Shown: one piece after another, positions 24,656 to 35,569 of the stretch
Numbering within the stretch: the first letter of the stretch is position 1
Layout of the letters: each line of letters opens with the position of its first letter
Virus record (IMG/VR): IMGVR_UViG_2778261089_000001
Coordinates: 1 to 40,604 of that record
Origin: a virus
Taxonomy: Duplodnaviria; Heunggongvirae; Uroviricota; Caudoviricetes
DNA length: 40,604 nucleotides
Strand: one strand, 5' to 3'
The notes under the pieces: generated by a model
The model's database searches: none
What the model was told of the DNA's origin: nothing
The model's input: only the letters and a program-made list of their open reading frames with translations
Program-made: the position numbers and the translations under genes

Positions 24656-25486
24656 TCAATGAACGGTATCGAGCAGCTTTAACAGCTCAGGGAATCGGGA
24701 TTCGAAGAAATGCGGCTGCGTCTCGCGCGGATTTGCGGGACTGGTGATGTTCTTGCCGAACATGCAGCCTTTCGCTGTCAGCGACCAGAATTTTTTGATG
24801 TTGTTAATCGCGGTACGGCTGTATCGTTCGCGCTGCTCGACGATCCCCAGCTTCACCATCTGGTGATATGCCTGATTAGCCGTCAGGCGGATACCATACT
24901 GTTTCAGCAGTGCACTCAGCGACAGCGTGGGGCGACTTGAGCCATCAGGCGCGTCAGCAGGAGCATCAATGGCATAGCGCGGTGCCAGATTCGGTAAGCC
25001 AACAGCCTCCTGGAGTTTCTGACAGGCACCAAGCACTGATGAGTTAGACAGGTTTAATTCCCGGCGCATAAAGTCCAGCAGAATCACGCCAGCCTGCATC
25101 TTGTCAGCAGCCTGTCCGGATAATTTTTCCGGTGCGCTGGTTACCATGTCGAAAGTACGGATCACCTTCAGATGGAATGACGGGCTTATCCACATTGCAT
25201 AGGCATACACCAGTTCTTTGCAGACATACGTCCCCTGGTTATTTCCGCCACGAATAACGTTAACTGGCTCTATATTGACCGAGTTGCAAATCTGCAACTC
25301 GCTTATTAAACGTTCAGTTTGCTCATTGCGGAGCCAGAATGCAGGCTTATGCTTATCCAGAGAACCGGCAGCCCTGTGCAGATCGTTCAGGCTGTAACGA
25401 CCATAAGCATCACGACGAACTTCAATACCATCAATGACCATCAGATTATTCATACTTCGTTTCTCCTCTTGATCAGGCGGCTGCAC
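24656..25486 (-). CDS. KilA-N domain protein (antirepressor-like)
   Basis: N-terminal KilA-N-like region (VIDGIEVRRDAYGRYSLNDLHRAAG). Confidence 0.55.
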   Translation of the reverse strand: MQPPDQEEKRSMNNLMVIDGIEVRRDAYGRYSLNDLHRAAGSLDKHKPAFWLRNEQTERLISELQICNSVNIEPVNVIRGGNNQGTYVCKELVYAYAMWISPSFHLKVIRTFDMVTSAPEKLSGQAADKMQAGVILLDFMRRELNLSNSSVLGACQKLQEAVGLPNLAPRYAIDAPADAPDGSSRPTLSLSALLKQYGIRLTANQAYHQMVKLGIVEQRERYSRTAINNIKKFWSLTAKGCMFGKNITSPANPRETQPHFFESRFPELLKLLDTVH

Positions 25487-25862
25487 CCGCCGTTTTCTCG
25501 TACTTACTGATGGTGATCTCGACCTTCCCTTTCGGGATAACCGGTCCCCACTCCACCAGCATTCTTTTCACCTGTCTGTCGTCTTCCCACACACCCGCGT
25601 GGGTCAACGCGTCAAACAGCGCCTTGTTATAGTTGTCCAGATCGCGGATCCGGTTATCCGGAGGAAACAACACGATCTCCACTGAAGCAGGTGCCGACGT
25701 TGGTTTTGGCAGACGACGTAACTGCTCAACTATTGCTGCGCACGCCGCGCTCTGAAATTTTCGCCCCGCCGCGCTTATCAGGCTCTTACCAGCAAATGCC
25801 CCTTTGTTGGGGTGTCGCCAGTACGTGTTCACGCTGGGCGGGAAAGGCAGGATCAGCTTCAT
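25473..25862 (-). CDS. rusA: Holliday junction resolvase RusA
   Basis: 129 aa; RusA-family sequence with conserved acidic residues. Confidence 0.8.
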   Translation of the reverse strand: MKLILPFPPSVNTYWRHPNKGAFAGKSLISAAGRKFQSAACAAIVEQLRRLPKPTSAPASVEIVLFPPDNRIRDLDNYNKALFDALTHAGVWEDDRQVKRMLVEWGPVIPKGKVEITISKYEKTAGAAA

Positions 25863-26185
25863 ACTTTCAGGCCTCTCTCATGTAACCAGTGGGTTGCACG
25901 CAGCCTGGCGTTTTCCTCACCGGCAAGCAGTGAGCGGATAATCCCGACCGCCTCGCTGTCGTCGTCCTTCACCGCGGTATGAAGAGTGATACCCCGGGCC
26001 ACGCCACGCTTTATCGTGATGACGCCTTTTTTCTCCAGTGCGCGAAGATGTTCCACCGCTGCATTCACTGAACGGTATCCCAGCATGGTTGCCACCTCCT
26101 GATTGGTTGGCGGGAAGCCACGTTCTTTCTGGTAAGAAATCAGCATATCCAGCACCTGCTGCTGGCATTGAGTTAACGTCGTCAT
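25859..26185 (-). CDS. LexA-like DNA-binding domain protein
   Basis: N-terminus aligns with LexA winged-helix region (MLGYRSVNAAVEHLRALEKKGVI). Confidence 0.65.
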   Translation of the reverse strand: MTTLTQCQQQVLDMLISYQKERGFPPTNQEVATMLGYRSVNAAVEHLRALEKKGVITIKRGVARGITLHTAVKDDDSEAVGIIRSLLAGEENARLRATHWLHERGLKV

Positions 26186-26868
26186 GCCGCCATCTCCCTG
26201 ACCAGTTTTTCCGCCTGCTGGCGAACCTGCGCCAGAAACGCCTCACCACATGCCTCAAGTTCATCGCGCCCGATGTAGCTGATTGCCGGTCCCTTCCAGG
26301 TCTTATCGAAAACAGCAATAGCACCAGCGAAGAAAGCGCCTGTCGGCACCTGCTTCTCGTCTTTCGGGATAAACCAGACAGGCAGTTCAAAACCAATACG
26401 CCCGCGAATAAAAGCAATATGATCTGCATCTTCCGGCCACCACACTTCGCTGGTGGCAGCTTTGATCAGGAAAACATAGCGCCCGCCTTTATCACGCATG
26501 GCACTGGCATGCTTCATGATGTAACGCATGCCGGTGATGTATTGCCCCTCATGCTGACTGGCGCGGCTGTATGGGGGATTACCAAAGGCAGCACCTTTAA
26601 GCTCCGCAAGACGTTCTGACCAGTCATGCGCCAGCGCGTTGTCTTCCGCCGTGTAATACGCGGCACATTTGGCGTTATCACCGTCAGTAAAAAGATCCAG
26701 AACAAACGGGCCAAACAGAGTGTTAATTCCCCAGAAAATGTTATCCGGCGTGCGCCACTGATCGCCCACTTCCTTCAGTTCATGGGCTGGTTTGTTCCGT
26801 AGTTCCACCAGCGCCTGGCAATATTTATTACTCATTAAGCCCCCACGTAATTCCCTGACAGATACCAC
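26182..26868 (-). CDS. Phage N6-adenine DNA methyltransferase (phage Dam family)
   Basis: 228 aa with NPPY catalytic motif (AAFGNPPYS). Confidence 0.8.
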   Translation of the reverse strand: MVSVRELRGGLMSNKYCQALVELRNKPAHELKEVGDQWRTPDNIFWGINTLFGPFVLDLFTDGDNAKCAAYYTAEDNALAHDWSERLAELKGAAFGNPPYSRASQHEGQYITGMRYIMKHASAMRDKGGRYVFLIKAATSEVWWPEDADHIAFIRGRIGFELPVWFIPKDEKQVPTGAFFAGAIAVFDKTWKGPAISYIGRDELEACGEAFLAQVRQQAEKLVREMAA

Positions 26869-27329
26869 TCATCACTCGATACAGCGCGCTTGCTGCTTTT
26901 CCGTAAACACTGCTCACGACGCGCCAGAAAATTGTTTCGTTCTGGCTGGGAGTGGCTTTCACGGAATGCCGCCATCCACACCGTTGCAGCACGACGGTAT
27001 AAGCCCCTGGACTCCAGTTCTTCCGCCTGGCGGGTCAGGCACAAAATCACCCGGGGATCGTTAGTGCCGACATAGAAATTGCGCACAGGTCTGGTTTCAC
27101 GAACTGGTTGTGGTTCCGGCTCCTGCGCTCTCTCAGTCAGGCGCGGGAAATGTCTGCGTGTATCTCCTTCACAACGGTGAGCCACACGCCCACTCTGACG
27201 TAACTTGCTTGCAGACTGCAGAACGCGCTGCCGTGAGTAACCTGCAAAAGCATCCGCAATGTCTCCGGAAGTACACCCCGGATGGGCTTCAATGAATTTC
27301 TGAACGTCATTTAACAGACTCATGATCAC
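26835..27329 (-). CDS. Hypothetical early-region protein
   Basis: 164-aa ORF translationally coupled between replication gene and Dam. Confidence 0.4.
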   Translation of the reverse strand: MIMSLLNDVQKFIEAHPGCTSGDIADAFAGYSRQRVLQSASKLRQSGRVAHRCEGDTRRHFPRLTERAQEPEPQPVRETRPVRNFYVGTNDPRVILCLTRQAEELESRGLYRRAATVWMAAFRESHSQPERNNFLARREQCLRKSSKRAVSSDEWYLSGNYVGA

Positions 27330-28267
27330 CCCCTGAATCCTGCCGGGATCTGGCTGTAGTCCACGTTGTCGTAACTGGATTTGAAGTACGGGTCTTCGCG
27401 TTTTTCGGTGTACGTGCTGACGGACGGTGATAAGCGCAGGGAAAGCTCATCCCATTTTTCCCGCAACTTCGACGGGCTGAGCACGTTACGGCACCAGAAC
27501 GGATCGCGGCTGACGCGGCTGTACATCTCGCAGATTTGTTTGTGAGTACGACCATCCTGCACACACATCAGGCGAATTTCGTTTGCCCAGGCTGTCCAGT
27601 TCGGTTCTTTGGGACGAACCACCTCGCCGTCACATTCGGCGGCTTGCTCGTACAGGGCGATGATTTTTTTCCAGAGCCACTGTGCGCAGGTCAAATCATC
27701 CTGCGTTCCCCACTGGCGCTTTTTAGGGCTGAATACAACCGCATCAGGATGGCGAGTTAAAAAATCCTGTTCATCCGTCTGCGTGTCCGGTTGCGAAGCG
27801 TCCGGACGAGAAGGTTTTTTATCTGACGGATCATGTTTTGATTTTACTGACGGATCCCCGCCAGATTCTGACGGGTGAAAACCCGCTTTTTTGCCAGATT
27901 TCGACGCATCAAATTTTGACGGGTCAGATTTTGATGCGTCAGATTTTGACGGGTCAGAATCTGACAGTTGAGAAAATGCCGCTGCCTGAAGCTTCGCAAC
28001 GTTAAGCTGATAAACATTCGACGCATTGCGGTTACCCTGGCGACGCGCCTTACGCGTTAACCAGCCTTCTGCTTCCAGCCGTGCGATAGCCGTCCTGACG
28101 GTACTCATCCCCGCGCCAATCTGACGGGCAATAGTTTCAATTGATGGCCAGCACACACCTTCGTCATTACTGAAATCAGCCAGGCGGGCCATAATTGCCA
28201 CGCTGGATAATTTCATGCCTGATGCAGCGCAACCATCCCATACATAGCCGGTTAATTTAGTGCTCAT
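27326..28267 (-). CDS. Replication initiation protein (O-like, HTH N-terminus, internal origin iterons)
   Basis: 313 aa; N-terminal winged-HTH-like region; central repeat peptides encoded by iterons. Confidence 0.7.
   Translation of the reverse strand: MSTKLTGYVWDGCAASGMKLSSVAIMARLADFSNDEGVCWPSIETIARQIGAGMSTVRTAIARLEAEGWLTRKARRQGNRNASNVYQLNVAKLQAAAFSQLSDSDPSKSDASKSDPSKFDASKSGKKAGFHPSESGGDPSVKSKHDPSDKKPSRPDASQPDTQTDEQDFLTRHPDAVVFSPKKRQWGTQDDLTCAQWLWKKIIALYEQAAECDGEVVRPKEPNWTAWANEIRLMCVQDGRTHKQICEMYSRVSRDPFWCRNVLSPSKLREKWDELSLRLSPSVSTYTEKREDPYFKSSYDNVDYSQIPAGFRG
27821..27970. repeat. Origin iterons: at least 6 copies of a ~15-bp repeat (consensus AGATTTTGACGGGTC) inside the replication gene
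   Basis: Five contiguous 15-bp units at 27894-27970 plus degenerate copies at 27821-27877. Confidence 0.75.
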
Positions 28268-28276
28268 GACCGACCT

Positions 28277-28615
28277 CTATTTCCCTGAATTTACGACGAA
28301 ACTGTTCGAGCGGGCTGAAGCACTCATGCTCATAGCCTTCGCGGAGGTAGATAACTCGTTGTGTTTCCGGCTCCCAACGAATGACTCTGACGGGCACTCC
28401 GTAGTGATCTTTGAACCAGCGGTTAACTTGTCGCAAAGGACTGTCTCCTTCTGCCGGTTGAAATCACCCACAGCCCACTCAGCAAAGCTGTGGGTTACAA
28501 TTTCCCTGTCACCTGGTACATTAACTGCATAGCAATACTCCACCTTCGCTTTTCCACCCGGTACAGGAAGCGCAATCAGTTGCGAGCGACGGTAGTGTGT
28601 TGTTAAACTGTTCAT
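28277..28615 (-). CDS. Hypothetical early-region protein
   Basis: 112-aa ORF in operon between CII-like and replication genes. Confidence 0.35.
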
Positions 28616-29220
28616 GCGTTAGTTTCTCCACAGTCACGACACGCCACGGCGCCCGGAGCTGCACACTCGCGGGCGTCATTACTTTCTGAAATGCAAAAGA
28701 TTTTGTAGACCAGTGCTGCATGCTCCTGCAGCTTCGAAATTGAGAGATACAGCTCGTCGTTAATTGCTGTCTTCTCATGCGGTTCCACCACACCGTCTTC
28801 GATTGCCGAACGAATCTGTCTGGAATAACTGCCAATCTGTTCAATGACTTCCAGCAGGCGCTGGTTAATATCGGCGTTGTCCACATCCTCGACGTCAGGA
28901 AGAGACACAAAGACGCCATTTGCAGACTGCGCCACAGCGTCAGCAATGAAGTGAGTTCCACCAGCACGTTGCAAAATCATTGCCCATCCCAGCGGGAAAA
29001 TCTGATCGCCATCGGCACGAAGGCGGTTAAATAATGCGTTTTCTGTTACATCCAGCCAGTCAGCTGCTTCAGCGTAACCACCCGGCAACGCTGCGATAGT
29101 TTTTCTGACAGCTTTCACGTACCACTCAGGCTGTTTTTCTACTTTCCAGTGATGCTTACCCACGGTTAGCCTCATCGTTCTGTGGTTTCTGTTAATCGAT
29201 TTATCCATTAGATTTTTCAT
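28612..29220 (-). CDS. CII-like regulatory protein (Phage_CP76-like); start uncertain
   Basis: Position immediately after cro; the longest frame begins with GTG at 29277, ATG at 29220 chosen. Confidence 0.45.
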
Positions 29221-29401
29221 AAAGCTCAGGTTTAAATGGCAACCGTCCGCAAGTTCTATATGCAGCTTCTGCTGCACGTCCTTTTGGAATTAACTGGCCC
29301 GGACGGTTTCGCCACTGATAAACGGCTTCAGTTGTTATGCCGAAAAAAGCAGCAACTTTCTCAATACTGCCGAAGTAGCTTTCGATATCGTCAGTTGTCA
29401 T
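29201..29401 (-). CDS. cro: Cro-like HTH repressor
   Basis: 66 aa with HTH (AAFFGITTEAVYQWRN), divergent from cI across operator region. Confidence 0.75.
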   Translation of the reverse strand: MTTDDIESYFGSIEKVAAFFGITTEAVYQWRNRPGQLIPKGRAAEAAYRTCGRLPFKPELYEKSNG

Positions 29402-29498
29402 ACGCCCTCCAAACTAAGTTTTATTAGATGCTAATTACAAATCTATCTTTGGTCAATAAAAACTAAGATTACTTAGCAATTCAAGAAATGGTGCTCCT
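29402..29498. promoter_or_regulatory. Divergent operator/promoter region (OR-like) between cro and cI
   Basis: Repeated AACTAAG motifs at 29412 and 29461; palindrome CTAAGATTACTTAG at 29463-29476. Confidence 0.55.
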
Positions 29499-30125
29499 AT
29501 GGAAACGGTTGGTCAGCGTATAAAAGCTCTGAGAAGAGTTACCGGAACGTCCCAGAAAGAATTGGGTAAATTTTGTGGAGTAAGCGACGTTGCTGTGGGG
29601 TACTGGGAGAAAGACATCAATACCCCTGGTGGGGAGGCACTTTCGAAATTAGCGAAGTTCTTCAATACGTCAATAGATTACATTCTTTATGGTGCTGAGT
29701 TTGAAGGCAAACTCGTCACAAACATGCGCAGAGTTCCTGTAATATCGTGGGTTCAGGCTGGGCAGTTTACTGAGTGCAGGGCAGCAGAAGTGTTTAGTGA
29801 AGTGGACAAGTGGGTAGATACATCATTAAAGATTGGTGATAACTCATTTGCATTAGAGGTTAAAGGTGACTCCATGACTAACCCTAATGGCCTCCCAACA
29901 ATACCAGAAGGCGCAACAGTGATTGTAGATCCAGATGCAGAACCTCGTCATGGAAAAATAGTCATCGCTCGACTTGATGGAACAAACGAAGCTACAGTAA
30001 AAAAATTAGTCATCGATGGCCCTCAAAAGTTTTTAGTGCCATTAAATCCTCGGTATCCCAACATCCCTATCAATGGTAATTGCCTTATCATTGGTGTAGT
30101 CAAAGGAGTTCAATACGAACTCTAA
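29499..30125 (+). CDS. cI: CI-type repressor (HTH_XRE N-terminus, S24 LexA-like peptidase C-terminus)
   Basis: 208 aa; HTH QKELGKFCGVSDVAVGYWE; C-terminal S24 region with GDSM serine motif. Confidence 0.85.
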   Translation: METVGQRIKALRRVTGTSQKELGKFCGVSDVAVGYWEKDINTPGGEALSKLAKFFNTSIDYILYGAEFEGKLVTNMRRVPVISWVQAGQFTECRAAEVFSEVDKWVDTSLKIGDNSFALEVKGDSMTNPNGLPTIPEGATVIVDPDAEPRHGKIVIARLDGTNEATVKKLVIDGPQKFLVPLNPRYPNIPINGNCLIIGVVKGVQYEL

Positions 30126-30129
30126 GACC

Positions 30130-30200
30130 TCTCTTCTCTAACTAAGGCACCGAACTAAGAAAAGTTTGGTGTTTTCTCTTGCCATAATAACTAAGTTAAG
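30130..30200. promoter_or_regulatory. Second operator cluster (OL-like) downstream of cI
   Basis: Same ACTAAG motif family as OR recurs at 30141, 30153 and 30189. Confidence 0.4.
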
Positions 30201-30331
30201 TTAGATTTTATATCAAAGATAACGAACAGGCAGGACGCCCACGAAGTAGCCGCCTGGGGCATATGAAGTCCAGGATGATTCGTTGAGTCATGTTGTGCCA
30301 CCAGGCACTCATGTTAAAGCAGGTGTATGAA

Positions 30332-30607
30332 ATGAAAGTCCAGATTTTAAACAATAACTGTGAAGTCGTTTGGTCATACGACATAGCCGCCCCTGTAGAT
30401 CAGAGCGGCGATAGCTGGACCAATGGGAAACATCAGATTATGGCTGGAGTTGTGTTCTCTTTACGCCGTGCTTTGGAACAGGCTGAAGTATTTCCATCAG
30501 ACCCTGAATGGAAATGGCCTTTTTCTATTTGTCCAAATTCGGAGAGCACATTTCAGAAAATTGGTCAGAAAGTCGCACTCGAAGAGCATCAGCCAACTGT
30601 TTCCTGA
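30332..30607 (+). CDS. Hypothetical protein, first ORF of leftward early operon
   Basis: 92 aa from ATG with AGGTG RBS; no family recognised. Confidence 0.4.
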   Translation: MKVQILNNNCEVVWSYDIAAPVDQSGDSWTNGKHQIMAGVVFSLRRALEQAEVFPSDPEWKWPFSICPNSESTFQKIGQKVALEEHQPTVS

Positions 30608-30770
30608 TTTTTTCAGGTAACTCGTCGGCATCGCAGAAACAACAACGCTCGATCATGTTGAAAGCCGATTCGTAGAACTGTTTCTGCTGAGTGTCGCTGA
30701 GACAGGAAAAGAGCGACGTTACGATGATTTTATTAATTGCATTATCAAGTTCTTTTTCATCAAAAGTCAT
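30525..30770 (-). CDS. Hypothetical small Cys-containing protein
   Basis: 81-aa ORF convergent with and overlapping previous ORF; weak RBS. Confidence 0.25.
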   Translation of the reverse strand: MTFDEKELDNAINKIIVTSLFSCLSDTQQKQFYESAFNMIERCCFCDADELPEKIRKQLADALRVRLSDQFSEMCSPNLDK

Positions 30771-31025
30771 TTGATTTTCATTTTATGTATACGGGCTTAA
30801 AAGGATACCACCGAGCCTGAAGTGGTGAAAAGACAGGCACATAACAGCTAAGTATTTTCAACCAAAGAGAATCCTTAGCGTTGTGGTGAATGAGGCTCAG
30901 CGCACGCGGGTTAAGATTGAGGCTGACAGTCGACCTTCTGTGGATACCCACCCGTCTGGTGTGCAACCTTCGCCAGGCACCGGGAGGCACCCGGCACCAC
31001 AACTTTATGCTGTGTGTAGTCTTGG

Positions 31026-31068
31026 CGGTACCAGCTTGTACCCTTGCTTCCGGCTGGTACCGTCCTTT
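31026..31068 (+). terminator. Rho-independent terminator-like hairpin (10-bp stem CGGTACCAGC/GCTGGTACCG plus T-run)
   Basis: Perfect 10-bp stem, 17-nt loop, followed by TCCTTTTTA. Confidence 0.45.
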
Positions 31069-31070
31069 TT

Positions 31071-31159
31071 ACAAAACAGAGAAGAGCATCACCGGACGAC
31101 GGGCTCATAACCCAATCCATCCGGGCGGCTGCCACCGCAGGTGTTCTTCTCTGTTTTGT
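31071..31159 (+). ncRNA. Candidate structured RNA element: 15-bp perfect inverted repeat enclosing a 59-nt GC-rich segment
   Basis: ACAAAACAGAGAAGA at 31071-31085 pairs with TCTTCTCTGTTTTGT at 31145-31159; region lacks a convincing ORF. Confidence 0.35.
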
Positions 31160-31283
31160 GGAGAAACTAACCGCCCCTACGGGGGCATTTATGGAAATGT
31201 AATTAACTCAATAATCGCCGGACGGTGAGGGCTTCCTTTTACCCGAGTTCAGCGCGGTGCAGCGCATATACGTGGAGAACAAA

Positions 31284-31820
31284 ATGTCATTTATTAAAAC
31301 TTTTTCCGGGAAGCATTTCTATTATGACAGGATAAATAAAAACGACATCGTTATTAACGATATCGCGGTTTCCCTTTCAAATATCTGTCGCTTTGCAGGA
31401 CATCTTTCACACTTCTACAGTGTCGCCCAACATGCGGTGCTTTGCAGCCAGTTGGTGCCGCAGGAATTTGCTTTTGAAGCTTTAATGCATGATGCAACAG
31501 AAGCGTATTGCCAGGACATCCCCGCACCACTGAAACGACTTCTTCCTGACTATAAACGGATGGAAGAAAAAATAGACGCCGTAATCCGTGAGAAATACGG
31601 GTTACCTCCTGTTATGAGCACGCCAGTGAAATATGCCGATCTCATCATGCTGGCAACCGAACGCCGCGATCTCGGGCTTGATGATGGCTCTTTCTGGCCT
31701 GTGCTGGAAGGTATCCCGGCAACAGAGATGTTCAACGTGATTCCACTGGCTCCAGGCCATGCCTACGGGATGTTTATGGAACGCTTTAACGAATTATCGG
31801 AGTTACGCAAATGCGCATGA
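31284..31820 (+). CDS. HD-domain phosphohydrolase-like protein
   Basis: H...HD motif (HFYSVAQHAV...MHDATEAY); start taken at MSFIKT. Confidence 0.5.
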   Translation: MSFIKTFSGKHFYYDRINKNDIVINDIAVSLSNICRFAGHLSHFYSVAQHAVLCSQLVPQEFAFEALMHDATEAYCQDIPAPLKRLLPDYKRMEEKIDAVIREKYGLPPVMSTPVKYADLIMLATERRDLGLDDGSFWPVLEGIPATEMFNVIPLAPGHAYGMFMERFNELSELRKCA

Positions 31821-32173
31821 ATGTTTTCGAAATGGAAGGGTTTCTTCGCGGGAAATGTGTACCGCGAGATCTGAAAGTGAACGAAACAAATGCTGAGTAC
31901 CTGGTACGTAAATTCGACGCGCTTGAAGCTAAATGTGCGGCACTGGAAAGCAAAATAATACCAGTGTCAGCTGAACTGCCACCAGCAAATGAAAGTGTTC
32001 TGTTATTTGATGCTAACGGAGAAGGCTGGCTGATTGGCTGGCGTTCTCTCTGGTACACCTGGGGACAAAAAGAAACCGGAGAATGGCAGTGGACATTTCA
32101 GGTCGGGGACCTTGAAAACGTCAATATCACTCACTGGGCAGTAATACCGAAAGCACCGGAGACTAAGAAATGA
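31811..32173 (+). CDS. DUF551-like phage protein (Trp-rich C-terminus)
   Basis: 120 aa; C-terminal GWLIGWRSLWYTWG...WQW. Confidence 0.45.
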   Translation: MRMNVFEMEGFLRGKCVPRDLKVNETNAEYLVRKFDALEAKCAALESKIIPVSAELPPANESVLLFDANGEGWLIGWRSLWYTWGQKETGEWQWTFQVGDLENVNITHWAVIPKAPETKK

Positions 32174-32385
32174 GCGTGATAAAAACTCATACAGGAATTG
32201 TTATCACCCGAGACGGTGAAAAGCGGATGAAATTACATTCCACTGAAACGTCCTGGGTTGCCGGACGTTGTGAATCCTATGACAAAAAGACTGGTTACCG
32301 TTGGGGTGCACCTAACATGCGTCGCCGTCTGCTACTGGACAGCATCAGGCCAATAAAACAGGTAGCAACCAGGGAACAAAATTAA
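32170..32385 (+). CDS. Hypothetical small protein
   Basis: 71-aa ORF translationally coupled to DUF551-like gene. Confidence 0.35.
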   Translation: MSVIKTHTGIVITRDGEKRMKLHSTETSWVAGRCESYDKKTGYRWGAPNMRRRLLLDSIRPIKQVATREQN

Positions 32386-32432
32386 TTATCAGGACTGGAA
32401 TTTGATATTACTGCCCGTGTGCAGCGGGCTAA

Positions 32433-32651
32433 GTGGAGAAACATATGCTGAACCTCGATTGTGTTCCAATCTCAACTTATTGCAAAGAAACTGGCGAAAC
32501 TCCTGAAGCAATAAACAAACGTGTACAGCGCGGTGTTTGGCGTGAAGGTGTTCAGGTTTTAAAGGTTGAAGGCGTTAAGGAGAGGTGGATTGACCTTAGT
32601 GAGGTTGCAAAATGGGCCAGACAAAACTGCTCAAACTACCGCGCGGCGTAA
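32433..32651 (+). CDS. xis: Excisionase-like protein
   Basis: 72-aa basic protein immediately upstream of and overlapping integrase. Confidence 0.6.
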   Translation: MEKHMLNLDCVPISTYCKETGETPEAINKRVQRGVWREGVQVLKVEGVKERWIDLSEVAKWARQNCSNYRAA

Positions 32652-33778
32652 CAATCAGGAAACACCGCCAGGGCGAAACGATCAATATAACTTTCACCTA
32701 CAAAGGAGTTAAATGTCGTGAGCCTCTTTCCAATCTGGAAGTAACACCAAAGAACATTAAATACGCCGAGCGTACACTCGGCGAAATCCATAATAAGATC
32801 GAAAAGGGAACATTCATTTATGCAGAATATTTTCCCCGTTCTGCTCGTTTGAAAATTTTTGGTAATGCTGCTGCAGGCAAAACGGTAAAGATGTACCTGG
32901 ACGAATATCTTGAAATCTGCGAAACAAGAAAACTTTCACCCTCTACGATTGGTGGCTATAAAAAATGCCGTAGGGCGTTAGCCTCACTTCACATTTGCCC
33001 TGCAAGTGAATTAACACCAGCAACCCTGAAAGCGTGGATTCAAAGCCAGAAAACAACCTTAAAAACCATTCGCAACCAGTTATCTTTCCTGCGGTCAGCA
33101 CTTGATGAAGCCGTGACCGATGGGGTACTTCAAATTAACCCCGTATCGTTAGTAACAGCTTCGCGCTACCAAAGTGATAAGTCAGAAGCAGAAAGCAGCT
33201 ATGTGGTTGATCCGCTATCACCAGCAGAAGTTGATGCATTACTAGCAGCAGCCGGAAACAAACAATGGGAAAATCTGTTCCGGTTCGCTATACATACAGG
33301 CCTGCGTAGTTCTGAACTATGTGCCCTTCGATGGCGTGATATCGACTTTGTTGGAAAAACTGCCCATGTCCAGAGCGCAAGTGTTGTCGGTGTTATCAAA
33401 GGAACAAAGACAAAAGCCGGTACTCGTAAAGTTGAACTGACAGAAGAGGCTATGTTGGCGCTGATAAATCAGAAGCCATTTACATTCATGAAGGATGCTA
33501 CTGTCTTTGAAGATCCAAAGACCAATAAGCCTTGGGCAAGTGCTGATGCAATCAGGAAAAAAGCATGGGTGCCAACATTGCGAAAAGCAGGTATTCGTTA
33601 CAGAAACCCATATCAAACCAGGCATACATTCGCCACCAGCCATATCAGTCGGGGTGCAAATTTGTTTTGGCTTGCGGCTCAAATGGGTCATAAAGGGCCA
33701 GAAATGCTTTTCAGACACTATGGCTCATATTTGAAGGAATATGATGGACAAGCAAGCCTGAAGAAGATAAAAATATAA
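32612..33778 (+). CDS. int: Tyrosine integrase (phage integrase family)
   Basis: 388 aa; arm-binding-type N-terminus, C-terminal catalytic region with R...HxxR...Y pattern. Confidence 0.9.
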   Translation: MGQTKLLKLPRGVTIRKHRQGETINITFTYKGVKCREPLSNLEVTPKNIKYAERTLGEIHNKIEKGTFIYAEYFPRSARLKIFGNAAAGKTVKMYLDEYLEICETRKLSPSTIGGYKKCRRALASLHICPASELTPATLKAWIQSQKTTLKTIRNQLSFLRSALDEAVTDGVLQINPVSLVTASRYQSDKSEAESSYVVDPLSPAEVDALLAAAGNKQWENLFRFAIHTGLRSSELCALRWRDIDFVGKTAHVQSASVVGVIKGTKTKAGTRKVELTEEAMLALINQKPFTFMKDATVFEDPKTNKPWASADAIRKKAWVPTLRKAGIRYRNPYQTRHTFATSHISRGANLFWLAAQMGHKGPEMLFRHYGSYLKEYDGQASLKKIKI

Positions 33779-33835
33779 CCCATGTCTGAACTGTTGGCCA
33801 CCATTTGTGGCCATTTCATTGAACAAGGTACACAC

Positions 33836-35569
33836 ATGGCAAATCAAATAACTAAACTAAAAAAAATAAACGTTGTAAAATTCCGGGGGCTAAAAAATAT
33901 AAATATAGAATTTGGAACTCGCCTAACTGTTATTTGTGGGAAAAATGGCACATCTAAATCAACAATTCTTGGTATTATCGCCCAGATTTTCAGTTTTACA
34001 AAAGACTTATCTAAGAATCCTGAGATTGATTTAACACAATATAAGACATTAACTAATGGCAACTTCAAGTCAGCTTTCAGTGAGCATTTTAGACTCTCAG
34101 AACAATTTGATACTGCTGGTTCAATGGACGTCAAGATTAGTGTCTATGATGGAGCATTTAACAAACATCTTGAAAAACTAACATTGGGTCTATACAGTTC
34201 CAGCGACAGGGATAAATCAAGACCAATAGTCAGGGGTAATGATTCTATCCCGGGGAAAAACCAAAGTAGAAACGTTACCCATCCTGTTATTTTTTTAAGC
34301 TTAGCCAGGCTTCTCCCTATTACCCTTCGTACTGATTACTCAACAAGAGATGTTGAGTATATCAAGAAAAATGCTGATGATATAAGAATAATGAGTAATC
34401 AACTCTTATTAAAAAACAATGGATGTTCAGTAACAGCCACAAAAGGGATTATTGATTCAATGGTTGTACATGGTGATAATTATGACTACCAATCAGTTTC
34501 TGTTGGTGAAGATAATGTAGGACAATTAATCCAAGCAATATTTTCGTTTAAAAGGCTGAAAGAACTGTATGATGACTATCATGGAGGTATTTTATTAATT
34601 GATGAAGCGGATGCAGGTCTCTTCCCTGCGGCTCAGTTAGAATTAATTAACATCCTAACCAAAGCTGCTAAAAAATATGATTTGCAAATAATCATGACAT
34701 CTCATTCCCCACTAATAATTGAAGATGTTTTCAATCGTTCCAAACAAGACCCCAAAGGCTTCAAAACAATCTACCTAACAGATACTTATGGTGATATAAA
34801 AACAAAAGATAACTTATCATGGGCTGATATAAATGCGGATTTACATGTTGAGACGGTAAAAATCGATGATAAGATTAGTCTTCCAAAAGCTAACGTTTAT
34901 TTTGAAGATAAAGAAGGCTTTGATTTTTTCAAACAATTGATAACTGACAGAAGAATAAAAAAAATATTAAATCCATTAGGAAATATAAATATTAGCTGCT
35001 CTGCCATTTTGGATTTAATGGCAAGAAAAATCCCTGAATTTACAATTAAAAGTCTGGTGGTCTTAGACGGCGATGTTGCTCTAGATAACAGTGATAATGC
35101 AAAAAAAGCAAAAAAAGAGAAAAGCTTATGCTTACTTCCAAGCATCCTACCTCCAGACCAAATGATTTTCGAATTTTTATATAATTTACCTCCTGATGAT
35201 GTATATTGGAACAATACAAATAGGTTCACAAAAGCTGTATTTTTGAGAATAGCTAAAGATATAATCACATCATTAAAGATAGGTAACTACCCTATTAACT
35301 TACAAAACTTAATAGATAATTATAGAAAAGAAAATCAAAACCATGGTGGAACGGTTAGAAAACTTTTTAAAGATTTTGCACACACGCCTCAATTTCAGGC
35401 TCTAGTCAAAGGACGAGTTAAAAATAACCCATATCGATATTGGGTCAAGAAAAATCCTGAGCAATCTGATCGTTTCAGGAATGAACTAATAAAGAGCCTT
35501 AAAGTTATTATGACAAGTGGACATGGTGTTGATTCTGCTACCATCTCATCATATCTTTCAGATAACTAA
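33836..35569 (+). CDS. OLD-family-like ABC ATPase (Walker A GKNGTSKST, Walker B LLIDEADAG) with C-terminal Toprim-like region
   Basis: P-loop, D-loop and SHSP motifs; C-terminal EDKEG and VVLDGD acidic motifs; AT-rich; ORF track start at 33782. Confidence 0.65.
   Translation: MANQITKLKKINVVKFRGLKNINIEFGTRLTVICGKNGTSKSTILGIIAQIFSFTKDLSKNPEIDLTQYKTLTNGNFKSAFSEHFRLSEQFDTAGSMDVKISVYDGAFNKHLEKLTLGLYSSSDRDKSRPIVRGNDSIPGKNQSRNVTHPVIFLSLARLLPITLRTDYSTRDVEYIKKNADDIRIMSNQLLLKNNGCSVTATKGIIDSMVVHGDNYDYQSVSVGEDNVGQLIQAIFSFKRLKELYDDYHGGILLIDEADAGLFPAAQLELINILTKAAKKYDLQIIMTSHSPLIIEDVFNRSKQDPKGFKTIYLTDTYGDIKTKDNLSWADINADLHVETVKIDDKISLPKANVYFEDKEGFDFFKQLITDRRIKKILNPLGNINISCSAILDLMARKIPEFTIKSLVVLDGDVALDNSDNAKKAKKEKSLCLLPSILPPDQMIFEFLYNLPPDDVYWNNTNRFTKAVFLRIAKDIITSLKIGNYPINLQNLIDNYRKENQNHGGTVRKLFKDFAHTPQFQALVKGRVKNNPYRYWVKKNPEQSDRFRNELIKSLKVIMTSGHGVDSATISSYLSDN

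Follow-up and report, generated by a model that had tools for sequence, protein, structure and literature searches.

The DNA analysed here, called the window throughout, is the whole 40,604-nucleotide stretch of the IMG/VR virus record IMGVR_UViG_2778261089_000001 (Caudoviricetes), which sequence comparison identified as an SfII/SfIV-like lambdoid phage; the element in question is an array of short palindromic repeats within its replication initiator gene (Table 1). The early-right operon has the typical layout, with cI on the plus strand (29499-30125) and, on the minus strand, the order cro, a cII-like gene, an open reading frame (ORF) encoding DUF4222, the initiator gene, a PerC-like gene, dam, a gene for a LexA-like DNA-binding protein, rusA and KilA-N. 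The initiator gene is 98-99.9% identical at the nucleotide level to those of SfIV (98.7%), SfII and Escherichia phage vB_EcoM-689R6, and its product matches PHROG 391 ("replication initiation O-like") from end to end (E = 1e-135). Near-identical genes are found in the databases under the names "replication protein O", "O protein family protein" and "primosomal protein". The initiator is a mosaic: an N-domain of the HTH_36 winged-helix type is followed by a linker that is probably unstructured, by a C-domain of the lambda O type and by a short tail resembling the C terminus of DnaT. Calling it "O-like", as was done in a preliminary description made from the sequence alone, is correct for the C-domain, a true homolog of residues 166-272 of lambda O (hhalign probability 99.7%, E = 1.5e-25, with 39% identity in 107 aligned columns; a tblastn search of the window with lambda O gave E = 2.9e-23), but not for the N-domain, in which Pfam recognizes HTH_36 (residues 23-70) and, at E values up to 0.01, no Phage_rep_O, and the profile of which gave no signal against lambda O.

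Within this gene, Tandem Repeats Finder detected a 15-nt period at 27895-27958 (4.3 copies, 81% matches, consensus CAGATTTTGACGGGT) and also a 30-nt super-period (88% matches, score 100); between 25443 and 35099, the initiator-gene repeats were the sole tandem array reported. A repeat search returned six in-register copies within 27859-27974. On the coding strand, the unit reads TCT GAC NNN TCA AAA (Ser-Asp-x-Ser-Lys), which amounts to a chain of 13-bp palindromes of the form GTCA(G/A)A(A/T)TCTGAC. The dyad symmetry is thus internal to each repeat unit, which can be recast as the 13-bp palindrome GTCAGAATCTGAC (GTCAGA-A-TCTGAC). Six such sites lie at 27860-27965, five of them in tandem at an exact spacing of 15 bp (27893-27965) and the sixth 33 bp further (27860-27872). 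When up to two mismatches were allowed, four sites were found in the entire 40.6-kb window, every one inside the array. The claim of at least six repeats of ~15 bp at 27821-27970, situated within the initiator gene and encoding a repetitive linker, was thus borne out, the range given enclosing the array plus two half-site-like boxes, GATCCGTCAG. The repetitive part of the linker, SDSDPSKSDASKSDPSKFDASKS, corresponds to residues 102-124 of the product of the minus-strand ORF (28267-27326), and the six sites together span codons 101-136 of 313, between the helix-turn-helix (residues 23-70) and the C-domain (from residue 161). The shorter motif TGACGGRTC is present five times in the window, four times within 27824-27955 (0.52 expected). 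Adjoining the array, downstream in the direction of transcription, is the least stable 40-mer of the gene (27808-27848; -48.3 kcal/mol compared with a window mean of -56.4 kcal/mol, 8th percentile), a candidate unwinding region; it contains GTAAA(A/T)TCAAAACA, which is highly conserved across 12 genera.

Table 1. Features of the initiator locus (positions refer to the window; a dot denotes no strand).
Feature	Position	Strand	Basis or remark
Replication initiator gene	27326..28267	-	ORF, 313 aa + stop codon
Winged-helix DNA-binding N-domain (aa 1-98), presumed iteron reader	27974..28267	-	Pfam HTH_36, GntR, DnaD_N
Candidate origin region, DNA encoding interdomain linker (aa 99-160)	27788..27973	.	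fixed synonymous sites, mosaic junctions
Iteron 1, GTCAGAATCTGAC, perfect 13-bp palindrome	27953..27965	.	0 mismatches on plus strand
Iteron 2, GTCAAAATCTGAC (coding strand)	27938..27950	.	1 mismatch, 15 bp from iteron 1
Iteron 3, ATCAAAATCTGAC (coding strand)	27923..27935	.	2 mismatches, 15-bp spacing
Iteron 4, GTCAAAATTTGAT (coding strand)	27908..27920	.	3 mismatches, 15-bp spacing
Iteron 5, GTCGAAATCTGGC (coding strand), then A6 tract	27893..27905	.	3 mismatches, 15-bp spacing
Iteron 6, GTCAGAATCTGGC, core of 19-bp palindrome CCCGTCAGAATCTGGCGGG	27860..27872	.	1 mismatch
Box GATCCGTCAG (coding strand), half-site-like, holds GATC	27847..27856	.	sequence search
Second box GATCCGTCAG, 24 bp from first, holds GATC	27823..27832	.	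sequence search, conservation
Candidate unwinding region, ~68% A+T, between/around the two GATCCGTCAG boxes	27808..27848	.	nearest-neighbour profile
C-terminal domain (aa 161-279), lambda O C-domain homolog	27431..27787	-	hhalign, tblastn
C-terminal tail SQIPAGFRG	27329..27355	-	8/9 identical to last nine residues of E. coli DnaT
Adjacent 164-aa gene, PerC/ANR-family regulator, winged helix-turn-helix-like N-terminal part	26835..27329	-	Pfam PerC, E = 8e-10

Conservation of the array was assessed in a genome sample of one genome per species (80 loci, 76 of them usable, from many Enterobacterales genera; alignment counts refer to 74 loci), the N-domains of which are 58-100% identical to that of the window; an initial scan of viral sequences had returned only N-domains 100% identical to it. 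The linker repeats were found throughout these loci, with units spaced 15 nt (116 cases), 30 nt (18) or 45 nt (4) apart, and near-identical E. coli prophages differ from one another by one or two whole 15-nt units. In the pentapeptide repeats of the 76 loci, codon choice is strikingly uniform: serine preceding aspartate is TCT in 225/310 instances, serine preceding lysine is TCA in 367/420, and lysine is AAA in 288/289. Serine codons in the N-domains of the same genes are AGC (35%), TCA (11%) and TCT (9%). Eleven codons of the block that follows the repeats (consensus GGFDPSESGGDPSVNSKQDPS) show 93-100% fixation among the 74 loci; they include GTA (Val; 74/74), GAT (74/74) and TCA (74/74) at three positions. 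Iteron 6 is the best conserved copy in the family, its inner 9 bp (CAGAATCTG) being nearly invariant in the 74 loci. As a baseline served 37 N-domain codons for which the amino acid is at least 95% conserved; there, the commonest codon accounts for 54% on average (maximum, 81%), which means that, with loci this divergent, synonymous sites have reached saturation. The core CA(G/A)A(A/T)TCTG is kept while it is translated, depending on the lineage, as SKSD, PDSD, PESG, PKSG or SKSV. In phiP27 (N-domain ~45% identical to that of the window) and Stx2_KH16-043, a 1-nt indel even shifts the frame in which the core ACCCTTCAGAATCTGG is read, so that VLTLQNLDP is encoded in place of GFHPSESGG, while the DNA is unchanged; a purely peptide-level explanation is therefore excluded. 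These comparisons show that the repeats are under purifying selection at the level of the nucleic acid, independent of the encoded peptide, and they make the array an unusually clean case of a DNA signal overriding codon choice, and even reading frame, within a gene.

The two GATCCGTCAG boxes are part of the same pattern. The GATC sequences that they contain (27829-27832 and 27853-27856) are conserved across the family, one in 74/74 and the other in 65/74 loci; at the box 27847-27856, the GAT codon is present in 74/74 loci and is succeeded by C in every one. A GATC cluster was considered and discarded, since the window shows no enrichment of GATC and only two such sites lie in the candidate origin. 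Roughly half of the loci have, at or near the position following the initiator gene, a gene for a DNA methyltransferase (of the Dam, C5 or MT-A70-like type); in the window, this is dam (26182-26868). Methylation-sensitive origin function is known for P1 oriR and oriC, and the conserved GATCs together with the methyltransferase neighbours hint at such a function here.

Which protein reads the repeats is suggested by what they are inherited with. Phage phiNP has window positions 27789-28266 in common (N-domain and array, 83% nucleotide identity) and an unrelated C-domain; mEp460_4F5 has 27326-27825 (the C-domain) in common, along with a different N-domain and a different array with a 23-nt period; and SfV orf39 combines a third N-domain type with a third array. 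Another natural domain swap is seen in phiP27. The mosaic junctions with mEp460_4F5 and phiNP place the DNA encoding the linker with the N-domain module. Among the 76 loci, one and the same array is combined with three or more types of C-domain, and the genes downstream are many and varied. The converse was found when viral contigs were scanned for the DNA core alone (CAGAATCTGGNGGNGATCC): of the 120 places recovered, 115 of the 117 on evaluable contigs encode the N-domain just upstream of the core and on the same strand, the remainder being cut by contig ends (three), a disrupted copy of this initiator gene (one) and a chance match in a lysozyme-like gene (one). Comparison with the arrays of relatives, which had been proposed as a check, thus yielded the same array with the same N-domain and, with other N-domains, other arrays in the corresponding place. 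Judged from these sequence relationships, array and N-domain are one inherited module, whatever the C-domain, and this co-inheritance is the pattern expected if the N-domain reads the sites. S55, T56, R58, T59 and A60 of the N-domain are invariant in eight relatives (84-100% identical to the window); from the position of the HTH_36 match, these residues would be part of the recognition helix.

The array is most probably a replication origin (we estimate a probability of about 0.8) in which initiator-binding iterons are accommodated in that segment of the initiator gene that encodes the interdomain linker, which is probably unstructured. The parallel to the lambda origin within O, drawn in the preliminary description, was supported by all comparative tests conducted, and neither absence nor lack of conservation of the repeats was encountered in relatives that replicate: they are present in SfII, SfIV, LLS, phiNP and phiP27, all of them isolated phages. 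Furthermore, the viable phages SfIV and LLS have the array and no other replication gene (PMC12315714). An origin is not mentioned in the SfIV genome paper. We infer the following sequence of events. The early rightward promoter, which reads the minus strand in the window, would drive expression of the initiator gene, and the winged-helix N-domain, probably as a dimer, would bind the six 13-bp dyad-symmetric sites, which would act as the origin in cis. The resulting nucleoprotein complex would then destabilize the A+T-richer stretch at 27808-27848, bracketed by the two GATCCGTCAG boxes, and the lambda-O-type C-domain, together with the DnaT-like tail, would recruit the host helicase, a task attributed to these two parts because the phage encodes no loader.

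Several observations weigh against this interpretation. With 68% A+T, and at no lower than the 8th percentile of the window, the A+T-rich stretch is modest and far weaker than that of lambda. Sites that follow each other at 15 bp would face almost opposite sides of the helix, unlike those of lambda with their spacing of 20-24 bp. The GATCCGTCAG boxes and the sequence between them could be recognized by another factor, and fixation of codons could, in principle, reflect a signal in the mRNA. Finally, the single-sequence structure model, which contains no helix or strand between residues 102 and 163 and is of low confidence, has a mean predicted local distance difference test score of 44, which is too poor for a fold search and settles neither dimerization nor disorder of the linker; comparison of the whole protein and of the tail with PDB sequences returned weak MarR-type matches or none.

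That the repeats are simply the by-product of a low-complexity peptide linker, created by slippage and kept for the sake of the peptide, is hardly credible, despite the fact that the linker is a simple Ser/Asp/Lys/Pro repeat whose copy number changes by whole units and whose SDxSK motif is widespread. Synonymous codons are fixed far above the background of the same genes, the DNA core persists where the peptide changes (including the altered reading frame of phiP27), and N-domain identities of 58-100% in many genera exclude that the loci are recent copies of one sequence. The altered reading frame, on the other hand, cannot tell DNA from RNA, and the element might instead be an mRNA signal, either a structure or a site bound by a protein, that affects translation or stability of the initiator message. 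The transcribed strand (27805-27975) indeed folds better than shuffled sequences (-53.2 kcal/mol, z = -5.3), but any series of palindromes would do so trivially. The consensus structure of 12 diverse loci amounts to just -2.1 kcal/mol with a covariation term of zero; the outer pair 4-16 of the 19-bp palindrome is G-G in 27/74 loci; the would-be loop, i.e. the centre of the palindrome, is its most conserved part; the best conserved stretch, GATCCGTCAGTAAATTCAAAACA, is unpaired; and no Rfam family was matched at threshold (best, mir-5880, with 30.7 bits where 97 are required). Action at the RNA level is, therefore, considered very unlikely.

More weight, albeit still little, is given to the notion that the sites are bound for a different purpose or by a different protein, while the origin is located elsewhere. 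Plasmid iterons also act in autoregulation and copy-number control, and the sites could likewise serve such functions or be read by a host factor or the PerC-like neighbour with its winged helix-turn-helix. Constraint at the DNA level is silent on which protein binds and on what the sites do; the GATCCGTCAG boxes, each with its conserved GATC, are unlike the palindromic units; a gene for a DNA methyltransferase accompanies the initiator in about half of the family; and the A+T-rich stretch is weak. Conversely, the array is the sole tandem array reported in 25443-35099, and no second motif cluster was found in the window. The gene next to the initiator differs between loci (PerC-like, Dam, C5-methylase, P or DnaC), whereas the array remains with the N-domain; the sites are therefore not read by the neighbour. 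The gene also lacks a DnaA box: with up to one mismatch to TTATNCACA, none was found in 27326-28267, the nearest being at 25446 and 28624. The position of the array within the gene also fits the known origins of lambda, P22 and L (PMC8022706). Such a different role of the sites is, thus, regarded as unlikely, and an origin read by the N-domain of the initiator as the better account of the array.

If the array is an origin, the question arises how the replicative helicase reaches it. The C-terminal part of lambda O is the one that contacts P. In line with the preliminary description, no loader of the P or DnaC type was apparent: tblastn of the window with lambda P, DnaC of E. coli and three phage proteins resembling P or DnaC gave nothing credible, all E values but one being above 0.4. 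The single exception (E = 0.007) covers 41 residues inside the initiator gene itself and is probably spurious. The 164-aa protein encoded next to the initiator, for which a domain search had been suggested, turned out to be a PerC/ANR-type regulator and not a helicase loader (PHROG 1324 "transcriptional activator", E = 3e-78; the NCBIfam ANR_neg_reg match was under the cut-off). The window thus contains no homolog of P, DnaC or DnaB, the genes downstream of the initiator being PerC-like, Dam, LexA-like DNA-binding and RusA, and in the complete genome of SfIV (54 genes), no helicase, loader or primase is annotated. LLS, like 34/314 lambdoid phages, has been classified as "O-only", and replication of these phages "is not yet understood" (PMC12315714); in a text search of that paper, DnaT was unmentioned, and the three uses of "origin" concerned neither iterons nor an intragenic origin. 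LLS gp44 (gene 44) has its N-domain (82% identity), iteron cores, boxes and kind of tail (in LLS ending in KIPEGFRG) in common with the window initiator, and in both phages, the replication module consists of a single gene; the C-domain of LLS, however, is of the Phg_2220_C type, and not of the lambda-O type as in the window.

The tail of the window initiator, SQIPAGFRG, corresponds to SQIPPGFRG of E. coli DnaT, the BLASTP similarity being confined to the last nine residues. In relatives with a Phg_2220_C-type C-domain (Y-type), the match extends over ~19 residues (RDINAISQPNDTIPPGFRG compared with RDVNTVSEPDSQIPPGFRG of DnaT; BLASTP E = 2e-7). Within 107 DnaT orthologs, I-P-x-G-F-R-G is at least 90% conserved, while the preceding residues vary. 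Nothing else of DnaT is present in the initiator (neither the DNA-binding domain, Pfam PF17948, nor the PriB-binding domain of the DnaT N terminus, no match to NCBIfam DnaT, and no further BLAST similarity), and the database name "primosomal protein" is therefore a misnomer that rests on the tail. The IPxGFRG tail is found on at least three unrelated C-domain types, among others in LLS, SfV and a further locus (L096). DnaTs ending in GFRGAK are from other genera than the two initiators with this ending.

The presence of the tail alternates with that of a loader gene. In the genome sample, a loader is encoded adjacent to 0/44 tail-bearing initiators and to 9/30 tail-less ones (Fisher p = 1.3e-4, not corrected for phylogeny), and in an independent viral sample, to 0/66 and 3/19, respectively. 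Tail-less initiators with a loader, although equipped with the same iterons, are accompanied by lambda P (L124; Pfam E = 7e-62) or by DnaC/IstB-like ATPases (L130, L153 and L155-L159). The same can be seen in individual phages: phiP27, with an SfV-type C-domain, lacks the tail and has DnaC-like and DnaB-like genes; SfV, with a phiP27-type C-domain, has the tail and no loader; and lambda, with the C-domain type of the window, has no tail and encodes P. The rule is incomplete, as ~21 initiators have neither tail nor loader; these have a C-terminal extension of ~60 aa instead. This extension (..ERDEAFxRxI....RRM..F.GR.AW..IW..), which matched no Pfam or PHROG family, occurs on lambda-O-type as well as Phg_2220_C-type C-domains (e.g., in the C-terminal 60-80 aa of L094, L121, L138-L142, L145 and L149-L152).

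A tentative explanation, which we hold to be possible rather than probable, is that the last 9-20 residues of the initiator mimic the tail of DnaT and so replace a phage-encoded loader, giving the origin-bound initiator access to the DnaB-DnaC hand-over pathway of the host. The alternation of tail and loader genes is in keeping with this idea. How DnaT recruits DnaB/DnaC has been stated to be unknown (PMC13377028), and no role is assigned to its C-terminal tail in the DnaT literature surveyed. If true, mimicry of the tail would explain the "O-only" replication modules of lambdoid phages that have been called not understood (PMC12315714), and would point to the DnaT tail as a docking motif in replication restart. 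The replication module of one gene with its DnaT-like tail is the more consequential part of this analysis, compared with the origin itself, and the alternation of tail and loader genes provides a concrete target for mutation, namely in LLS, which grows on E. coli K-12.

A number of further observations concern the array and the surroundings of the initiator gene. On the plus (antisense) strand, iterons 5 and 6 are separated by a hairpin that resembles a terminator and includes a T6 run (27872-27895; CGGGTGAAAACCCG CTTTTTTGCC), the stem of which is not conserved in relatives; the A6/T6 tract itself may have a role in DNA bending. An antisense or internal promoter in the array was considered and discarded, since no sigma-70-like site was found in 27300-28500. 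In one viral contig (L262, ~1150-1210), the initiator copy breaks off precisely at the A6 tract that separates iterons 5 and 6 and continues into unrelated DNA, which looks like the end of an insertion or rearrangement. In two called proteins (P0033 and P0042), the array is read in another frame (..LNCQNLTRQNLMHQNL..) and encounters an early stop, probably as a result of frameshifts within the repeats, either real or derived from sequencing. In many E. coli genomes, there are genes for 138-aa proteins in which the initial ~80 residues of the N-domain are fused to a RusA domain, as well as for other truncated N-domain fragments, presumably deletions in decaying prophages. Upstream of the initiator gene, two minus-strand ORFs overlap (28257-28436 and 28277-28615). 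The 59-aa ORF, which overlaps the start of the initiator gene, is a clear DUF4222 (Pfam E = 9e-19); in the annotations of SfIV and LLS, an ORF of 108-112 aa in another frame was chosen instead. In Elizabethkingia phage EKP1, a DUF4222 gene also immediately precedes the initiator gene, and DUF4222 may be a conserved partner of the initiator.

Compared with known replicons, the proposed origin is a textbook layout with a new sequence. In iteron plasmids (e.g., F, P1, RK2 and pPS10), repeated sites for a winged-helix initiator lie beside the region that is opened; the iterons are located outside the rep gene, are ~17-22 bp long, are spaced by roughly two helical turns and are flanked by DnaA boxes. 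The window resembles these replicons in having repeated sites and an adjoining candidate opening region, but differs in that the array is intragenic, is spaced at 15 bp and has no DnaA box within the gene. Closer is the likeness to lambda, in which four dyad-symmetric iterons of 18 bp cover codons 117-145 of O (299 codons) and an A+T-rich stretch comes after them. In both cases, dyad-symmetric repeats are situated in the coding region of the initiator itself, between its DNA-binding N-domain and its C-domain, and a less stable stretch comes next in the direction of transcription, although it is much weaker in the window than the A+T-rich stretch of lambda. Differences are the dimensions of the array (six 13-bp sites at 15-bp spacing plus two half-site boxes, instead of four 18-bp sites at 20-24 bp), the HTH_36-type N-domain, the lack of a P gene, and the DnaT-like tail, which is missing from lambda O. 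Immediately to the right of the A+T-rich region of its ori, lambda contains TCGTCAGAGAATTCTGGCGAATCC (L167, ~771-794), which resembles the most conserved element of the family, CCGTCAGAATCTGGCGGGGATCC (27853-27875 in the window); this likeness may be due to shared ancestry of the end of the linker, or to coincidence.

Lambda O, P22 gp18 and L gp18 each have distinct iterons within their coding regions, four repeats of ~20 bp in P22 gene 18 and six of 11 bp in L gene 18 (PMC8022706). Like the gene 18 products of P22 and L, the initiator described here would be a distantly related origin-binding protein with intragenic iterons of its own; unlike the window phage, P22 and L encode a DnaB-type helicase (gp12) beside the initiator (PMC8022706). 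Intragenic iteron origins are, thus, already known as a kind, and this array is a new member with a new sequence. Its value is mainly for annotation, as it supplies the iteron, GTCAGAATCTGAC, and the origin module for an initiator family that is widespread in phages and prophages of enterobacteria, among them SfII and SfIV (serotype-converting phages of Shigella), phiP27 and LLS.

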